A stretch of DNA of 64,000 nucleotides from a virus (Duplodnaviria > Heunggongvirae > Uroviricota > Caudoviricetes): IMG/VR virus record IMGVR_UViG_3300037455_000543, positions 315,136 to 379,135 of that record; one strand, written 5' to 3'. The translations under genes and the position numbers were made by a program. The notes under the pieces are model-generated. The model was not told the DNA's origin. It worked only from the letters and a program-made list of their open reading frames with translations, and did not search any database. Shown piece by piece: positions 10,226-10,871 of the stretch. Every line of letters starts with the position of its first letter. Positions within the stretch are counted from its first letter, which is position 1.

Positions 10226-10302
10226 TCCGTAAGGAGAGATTCGAACTCCCACACACGAGGATATAAGCCCCATCGCCTGATACCATCGGACATTGCTTAC
10301 GG
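10226..10302 (-). tRNA. tRNA-Ile(UAU), atypical D arm
   Basis: CCGTAAG/CTTACGG acceptor, TGGGG-CTTATAT-CCTCG anticodon arm, GGGAG-TTCGAAT-CTCTC T arm. Confidence 0.7.
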
Positions 10303-10310
10303 GAAGTTCG

Positions 10311-10384
10311 TGGACAGACTCGGACTTGAACCGAGAACCGGCGGGTTATGAGTCCGCTGCTCTAACCGATTGAGCTATCTGTCC
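10311..10384 (-). tRNA. tRNA with CAU anticodon (Ile2/lysidine or elongator Met)
   Basis: Cloverleaf, GCGGA-CTCATAA-CCCGC. Confidence 0.9.
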
Positions 10385-10389
10385 AATAG

Positions 10390-10465
10390 TGGACCTGGTG
10401 GGGCTCGAACCCACGACCCATCGATTAAAAGTCGATTGCGCTAAATACCACTGCGCCACAAGTCC
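10390..10465 (-). tRNA. tRNA-Lys(UUU)
   Basis: Cloverleaf, ATCGA-CTTTTAA-TCGAT. Confidence 0.92.
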
Positions 10466-10502
10466 ATTTAGTTTGATTATACTGGCTAGCTCTGCCAGTT
10501 AG

Positions 10503-10589
10503 TTGAGGTGGCTGGATTCGAACCAGCGCTGTGTCATTAACCGTACAGGATTCAAAGTCCCGCGCCATCGCCAACTAGGCCACACCTCA
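10503..10589 (-). tRNA. tRNA-Gln(UUG) with 18-nt variable region
   Basis: U1-A72, CGGGA-CTTTGAA-TCCTG, GCTGG-TTCGAAT-CCAGC. Confidence 0.85.
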
Positions 10590-10597
10590 AAAATTCG

Positions 10598-10671
10598 TAC
10601 CCTAGCCAGGATTCGAACCTGGGACCCTCTGCTTAGAAGGCAGATGCTCTATCCAGCTGAGCTACTAGGGC
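10598..10671 (-). tRNA. tRNA-Arg(UCU)
   Basis: Cloverleaf, TCTGC-CTTCTAA-GCAGA. Confidence 0.95.
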
Positions 10672-10673
10672 AT

Positions 10674-10704
10674 AAAAAATGTTCCCGTGTTTGCACACAG
10701 GAAC
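10674..10704 (-). terminator. Attenuator terminator immediately before the tRNA operon
   Basis: GTTCCTGTGT-GCAA-ACACGGGAAC-ATTTTTT (10-bp stem, GNRA loop). Confidence 0.85.
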
Positions 10705-10737
10705 CAAAAATCATTCAGAGTTCAGTGAACAAACAGA

Positions 10738-10794
10738 TCAAAACCAAGGTGAACCTTGTTTTCTTATTCTTATTTGTTTTCTTATACTCATCAT
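10738..10794 (-). CDS. Leader peptide MMSIRKQIRIRKQGSPWF of a codon-sensing attenuator
   Basis: ATG ATG AGT ATA AGA AAA CAA ATA AGA ATA AGA AAA CAA GGT TCA CCT TGG TTT TGA; codons match downstream tRNAs. Confidence 0.8.
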   Translation of the reverse strand: MMSIRKQIRIRKQGSPWF

Positions 10795-10799
10795 ATTTT

Positions 10800-10871
10800 T
10801 ATTTATAGGAGAAAATTTTTGTTTTTCGTTTTTACGTTGTATAATATAGTAAATTATTTCATCTTTGTAAA
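10800..10871 (-). promoter_or_regulatory. Tandem promoters for leader/tRNA operon (sigma70-like and T4 late-type)
   Basis: TTTACA(10871-10866)-N17-TATATT(10848-10843); TATAAATA at 10807-10800, 5 nt before the leader ATG. Confidence 0.75.

Follow-up and report, generated by a model that had tools for sequence, protein, structure and literature searches.

Putative codon-sensing attenuators ahead of the tRNA operons of a T4-like phage

Introduction

Leader-peptide transcription attenuators are known from amino-acid operons and include trpL and the multivalent thrL and ilvL. The same type of control governs a component of translation in the pheM (pheST) attenuator of E. coli. It has long been asked why phage genomes include tRNAs, and the main answers are codon compensation and the replacement of host tRNAs that have been destroyed. 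In the his leader of Salmonella, ribosomes are slowed at AGA and AUA codons to the point that attenuation is relieved (PMC4046918). The tRNA array of the Anabaena trn operon stays silent until translational stress (PMC8421152, PMC10272220), and the PARIS defence cleaves host tRNA-Lys, while the tRNA-Lys of T5 rescues infection (PMC11464382).

An earlier note on the DNA analyzed here had proposed that a phage operon of five tRNA genes is controlled by an attenuator. Our analysis supports this interpretation, as masked folding and codon covariation both came out as predicted, and finds that its scope had been understated, since the genome holds seven units of this kind. We consider it very likely that the leader is a ribosome-mediated transcription attenuator, which would turn the five-tRNA operon on when AUA, AGA, AAA or CAA is decoded slowly.

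The phage and its probable host

The window, by which we mean the whole stretch of 64,000 nucleotides, spans C1:315136-379135 of a virus record that is complete, 424 kb long and has direct terminal repeats. The phage, a giant one from the rumen, is T4-like, with a match to the major capsid protein gp23 (E 2e-68) and with a clamp loader and an SbcC-like nuclease as further T4-like content. An ORF of 199 aa, the size of gp55, gave a weak sigma-like match, and an RNA polymerase beta subunit was searched for among the phage genes and not found. The genome encodes more than 50 tRNA genes in addition to a tmRNA, located at genome positions 123310-123660. The stretch is present in cattle and sheep gut sequencing runs, and one window protein shares 80-91% identity with proteins of Fibrobacter genomes; with this single shared gene as the ground, the host is probably Fibrobacter.

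Several other elements were observed along the way. Directly after the tRNA operon lies the gene of a 626-aa protein (window 8250-10130, minus strand) with a signal-like N-terminus and Cys-rich repeats, for which no PHROG match was found. A cow-rumen-2 RNA (RF02947) was detected above the gathering score at window 22621-22727 (minus strand), within the long intergenic stretch 22400-23100. A recurrent motif pair, GTTCCTAT and TACTNCYCGC, flanks tRNA-like elements or anticodon-like hairpins, or lies inside tRNA anticodon loops. Its sites are 5177-5289 (minus strand) and about 5360-5300 in the window and 13509/13556, 414536-415082, 415908/415956 and 423361/423402 in the genome, and it also occurs in L055, L057, L059 and L064. 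The pair is reminiscent of a twister ribozyme in permuted form; a search of window 5050-5450 against Rfam yielded no ribozyme.

The five-tRNA operon and its leader

The features of the operon are collected in Table 1. The leader ORF and its codons 4-13 are exactly as the earlier note had described them, and the tRNA genes listed there as Arg-UCU, Gln-UUG, Lys-UUU, CAU and Ile-UAU were all found in this order after the leader. The two promoters claimed ahead of the leader were also identified, as predictions, one of sigma70 type and one of T4-late type.

Table 1. Features of the five-tRNA operon and its leader (window coordinates)
Feature	Position	Strand	Remarks
sigma70-type promoter	10843..10871	minus	-35 at 10871-10866, 17-nt spacer, -10 at 10848-10843; predicted
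T4-late-type promoter TATAAATA	10800..10807	minus	5 nt upstream of the leader ATG; putative
Leader ORF, 18 codons	10738..10794	minus	reading frame and control codons conserved across 7 different ortholog sequences
Control codons 4-13 (3 ATA, 3 AGA, 2 AAA, 2 CAA)	10756..10785	minus	include segment 1, 10778-10771
Segment 2	10720..10736	minus	partner of segment 1 or of segment 3 (antiterminator); would lie under a ribosome at the stop codon
Segments 3 and 4, intrinsic terminator hairpin	10681..10704	minus	10 bp, GNRA loop; from sequence pattern
Terminator U-tract	10674..10679	minus	attenuated 3' end predicted here
tRNA-Arg(UCU)	10597..10671	minus	
tRNA-Gln(UUG), 88 nt	10502..10589	minus	
tRNA-Lys(UUU)	10389..10465	minus	
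CAU-anticodon tRNA, probably Ile2 (lysidine type)	10310..10384	minus	putative identity
tRNA-Ile(UAU), non-canonical shape	10226..10302	minus	below the Rfam cut-off
Terminator ending the operon	10199..10216	minus	

The sigma70-type promoter is kept in the orthologs and belongs to a class that occurs 90 times in the genome. The late-type element TATAAATA is found 4-5 nt before an ATG at 37 places genome-wide, 29 of which open ORFs of at least 60 aa. Because it sits so close to the ATG of these 29 long ORFs, the late transcripts of the phage appear to be leaderless. The leader ORF is without a Shine-Dalgarno sequence and has the same ATG spacing as the apparently leaderless late genes, and the late promoter ahead of it is predicted to give a leaderless leader transcript.

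The run of ten ATA, AGA, AAA and CAA codons is the longest in the genome in any frame on both strands, the next longest being seven. When the same 30 bases were shuffled, ten out of ten codons of this set were reached once in 200,000 trials, and the remaining two frames of the stretch contain stops. The A-richness of the region therefore fails to explain the codon run.

Among the tRNA genes, tRNA-Gln(UUG) stands out by a long variable arm of type II, and its counterpart at the same place in the related phage G001 is ordinary and short. The CAU tRNA is 91% like one Fibrobacter CAU tRNA and unlike the three other CAU tRNAs of the phage, and it is plausibly a tRNA-Ile2 with a lysidine-modified C34; no TilS was found in the phage genome. 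Odd tRNA-Ile genes (UAU, GAU) that were missed or miscalled by ARAGORN were seen in L002, L109, L110, L112, L123, L128 and L129, and one in G001 has an insert within the anticodon loop. The leaders also aid the annotation of odd phage tRNAs that scanners overlook.

Alternative helices and folding

The 10-bp terminator, which has A and six T behind it and stops 2 nt short of tRNA-Arg, agrees with the earlier description, and so do the helices that compete with it. The 1:2 helix, which joins 10778-10771 to 10735-10728, is present in the MFE fold, and 10 of 11 bases are paired in the 2:3 helix, with the claimed extension included. The antiterminator duplex has an energy of -15.6 kcal/mol, where shuffled sequences average -8.1 (p=0.006), and the leader fold has a z of -4.05.

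Folding was performed with equilibrium models in which the ribosome was masked with an assumed footprint of -15 to +12 or +15 nt. When nascent RNA ending before the complete terminator is left unmasked, the control codons at 10778-10771 pair with segment 2 in the MFE fold and the terminator can nucleate. A mask at codon 7 or 13 of the same RNA leads to the antiterminator, and a mask at the stop leads to the terminator again, so that the three states predicted for masking of codons 4-13 or of the stop region were obtained. In naked RNA, 0.20 of the terminator's 5' arm and loop is paired with upstream sequence; this fraction rises to 0.78 when the ribosome sits on the control codons and is 0.36 when it sits at the stop. 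The energies of antiterminator and terminator are close (-15.4 and -14.7 kcal/mol, respectively), and at equilibrium on the full-length RNA the terminator beats the antiterminator, stalled ribosome included; a switch of this design must therefore be kinetic. Contigs from RNA libraries cover the leader and the leader-tRNA junction, one of them running from 10821 through the terminator into tRNA-Arg. Assembled contigs are silent on ends, strand and level, and one reaches upstream of the promoter, so that DNA is a possible source; the case for the attenuator makes no use of these contigs.

Seven leaders in one genome

Six more tRNA operons of the genome open with an ORF of 20-37 codons and a terminator, giving seven units in total. 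Allowing for wobble, the tRNAs of its own operon read 58-74% of the codons of each leader, compared with 11-24% in the ORFs of the genome. With operon tRNA lists taken from ARAGORN and corrected by hand in a few cases, the true assignment of leaders to operons was the best of 5,040, in exact and wobble reading alike. The match extends to the choice among synonymous codons: the leader of the five-tRNA operon has AAA for Lys, CAA for Gln, ATA for Ile and AGA for Arg, and the corresponding codons are AAG (four times) in the leader of the Lys-CUU operon, CAG (three times) in that of the Gln-CUG operon, ATT (four times) in that of the Ile-GAU operon and mostly CGN in that of the Arg-ACG operon. Ser is written as AGY in 5/5 codons of one leader and as TCN in 7/7 of another. 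The two Asn/Pro/Thr leaders are poorly separated from each other by codon match. An antiterminator duplex is present in all seven leaders, above shuffles in each (p 0.002-0.03), and none of the 81 promoters of the same class that lack a nearby tRNA (90 promoters in total) is followed by a short ORF and terminator. Jointly, the seven putative attenuators cover nearly the whole code, and each tRNA set is probably made only while ribosomes read the matching codons slowly.

A number of candidates were rejected. The short leader pattern matched 42 loci without tRNA, all by chance, and L114 was likewise discarded as chance. An eighth attenuator was considered at a Leu-rich mini-ORF of 10 codons (15018-14986, minus strand) before a solitary tRNA-Leu(UAA); its hairpin is without a U-tract, and it is absent in L002 and L003.

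Relatives and covariation

Three related phage records were recovered, G001, G002 and G003 (the source genome being G000), and the GroEL proteins of G001 and G002 are 64% and 62% identical to that of the window. The place of tRNA-Gln(CUG) differs among them: the Tyr operon houses it in G000 and G003 and the Leu operon in G001, and in G002 it is part of the five-tRNA operon's ortholog. The leader of the operon that bears it holds 3, 3, 2 and 2 CAG codons in G000, G003, G001 and G002, and other leaders hold 0-1; in G002, where this tRNA joined the five-tRNA-operon ortholog, the leader gained its two CAG. tRNA-Cys and tRNA-Ile(GAU) also change operon among the relatives, and the leader codons move along with them. 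The earlier note had asked whether leader codons covary with tRNA content, and the codons do follow the relocated tRNAs: among 288 permutations over the four genomes, none scores better than the arrangement seen. This rank gives no clean probability, since the permutation tests count kin genomes as independent and only about three separate moves are involved. No move contradicting the rule was found.

In seven distinct sequences of the five-tRNA-operon leader orthologs the frame is preserved, along with 7-12 codons of the set. Antiterminator pairing is retained in four lineages with differing letters (10/11, 10/11, 10/11 and 10/10), and the Leu operon displays a three-way compensatory change across segments 2, 3 and 4. 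There are exceptions to the codon match, namely Arg-CCU in L002, with a leader lacking AGG, and a CAC-anticodon element in L105/L110, with a leader lacking GTG. The Tyr-operon leader of the G002 lineage (L053, L054, L060, L123) carries an in-frame TAA at codon 9, which is the same in three samples. The frame, control codons and antiterminator downstream of this TAA are intact, and the operon may be deregulated in that lineage. A suppressor reading of the TAA was dropped, since the 'Stop-TTA' that ARAGORN called in L128 is a tRNA-Lys(UUU) whose D-loop has an insert.

Long AT-rich ORFs that probably encode homing endonucleases were observed inside or between operon tRNA genes in L003 (10310-11300), L069 and L078, and in L003 one of them separates the attenuator from tRNA-Gln. 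G001 also contains tandem tRNA-like elements with extended anticodon arms (L118 580-1000 and near 1816), with no attenuator ahead. BLAST of the region against cultured phages returned matches to tRNA bodies only, the first leader pattern used on metagenomes gave no match, and three Fibrobacter tRNA-Arg(UCU) loci inspected by eye have no comparable leader-terminator.

Proposed mechanism and alternative explanations

From the anatomy, the codon match, the covariation and the conserved alternative pairings obtained here, we infer the translation, termination, kinetics and physiological trigger of the following scheme. Host RNA polymerase would begin at the early or the late promoter, and a ribosome would trail it on the leader. 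A ribosome at the stop would hide segment 2, upon which the terminator would form and the RNA would end near 10675. A ribosome lingering on codons 4-13 would occupy segment 1 and free segment 2. Segment 2 would then pair with the terminator loop and the upper part of the 5' arm while the 3' arm has yet to emerge, and the tRNAs would be transcribed. When the ribosome is absent, the 1:2 helix would form and the operon would be off. The tRNA product would restore the decoding that is sensed, and therefore a negative feedback loop would be closed.

The same switch might sense amino-acid supply through uncharged tRNA, as biosynthetic attenuators do, rather than the amounts of tRNA species. Such sensing is the established behavior of the his and trp leaders (PMC4046918), and for a stalled ribosome a missing tRNA and an uncharged one are indistinguishable. 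However, synonymous codons are split by isoacceptor among the leaders (AAA/AAG, CAA/CAG, ATA/ATT), and this isoacceptor-level match favors tRNA supply over amino-acid supply; starvation, moreover, is not curable by extra tRNA, and we regard amino-acid sensing as unlikely. Much less probable still is a role of the leader in translation coupling or timing, in which any translation or general ribosome slowing would fix the level of read-through and the codon content would be incidental. The four codons are indeed A-rich like the surrounding 5' region, the stretch is made of short repeats, and the late promoter would yield leaderless RNA, so timing may count; but A-richness leaves the codon run unexplained, the six other leaders match their own operons at different base compositions, and the travel of codons with relocated tRNAs strongly disfavors such a device. 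We give similarly little credence to a plain terminator or processing hairpin behind an ORF that encodes a functional peptide or nothing, with the tRNAs made through read-through or phage antitermination. The contig from 10821 into tRNA-Arg fits read-through, and equally DNA or an induced state, whereas the leader peptides diverge among the seven units and among orthologs while the codon match and antiterminator pairing persist.

What the proposed attenuators may respond to

If the leaders are attenuators sensing tRNA supply, their codons indicate which shortage would open them. In samples of three Fibrobacter genomes ATA accounts for 4-13% of Ile codons and AGA for 6-11% of Arg codons. The corresponding shares in the phage are 23% and 46%, and the two codons are enriched there 2.7-fold (ATA) and 3.7-fold (AGA). 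As the probable host uses these codons seldom and the phage favors them, the five-tRNA operon can be seen as the rare-codon unit. Phage protein synthesis alone could exhaust the rare-codon tRNAs for Ile and Arg, and as ordinary decoding demand could be the trigger, a link to tRNA cleavage of the PrrC or PARIS type is not needed. The remaining six units extend to common codons, and this breadth is easier to reconcile with a wholesale loss of host tRNAs than with codon bias. We entertain, tentatively, that the seven attenuators act together as a near-complete sensor, resolved to isoacceptors, of the tRNAs destroyed in infection. Only the lost ones would be replaced, and RNA structure and ribosome speed would thus make up an inducible counter-defence. 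The destruction so sensed might be the work of host anticodon nucleases or of the phage's own host shut-off, a proposal we make with the same reserve. A host tRNA-cleaving defence is one candidate trigger among others.

Since the leaders spell out the codons that are monitored, they open the purpose of phage tRNAs to direct test: whatever condition releases a given terminator would be the one for which its tRNAs were selected. Each leader would also be a ready reporter for one isoacceptor group.

Comparison with known systems

The locus displays a short ORF between promoter and genes, clustered cognate codons and an intrinsic terminator ahead of the first gene, together with a mutually exclusive antiterminator whose dependence on ribosome position is suggested by equilibrium folding and ortholog covariation. 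The Rfam families of His, Trp, Thr and Leu leaders have no match at the leader, and the genes downstream are tRNAs, not biosynthetic genes. No T-box riboswitch was matched in Rfam at the gathering score or up to E 10. A lactis-plasmid match (31 bits, cut-off 70) was rejected as reflecting the hairpin-plus-terminator shape and AT content.

The phage leaders are like hisL of Salmonella and E. coli in the short ORF, the clustered control codons, the alternative helices, the intrinsic terminator and the off state when untranslated (PMC4046918). The trp, thr and ilv leaders work along similar lines. The tRNA array of Anabaena, the nearest analogue in function, is repressed as a whole at initiation by the ribbon-helix-helix protein TrcR, unlike the attenuation proposed for the phage, and the words 'attenuat' and 'leader' are absent from the text of PMC8421152. 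Like T5, the present operon carries a tRNA-Lys, here tRNA-Lys(UUU), and the abstract of the T5 study describes no demand-sensing control (PMC11464382). A literature search for an attenuator on tRNA genes found none; subscription papers were mostly beyond its reach, so that this absence is no proof.

Compared with the leaders of amino-acid operons, the phage leaders differ in regulating tRNA genes, and the output is therefore the sensed molecule itself. They differ further in that the codon match is at the isoacceptor level, in being phage-borne and in dividing the code among seven units. pheM governs an aminoacyl-tRNA synthetase for one amino acid, whereas the phage units govern tRNA genes. 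As far as can be judged from sequence, the mechanism would be classical attenuation, and what would be new is the tRNA-gene target, the feedback on the sensed molecule and the splitting of the code over seven sensors. Attenuation would thereby extend from amino-acid supply to the feedback control of tRNA abundance.
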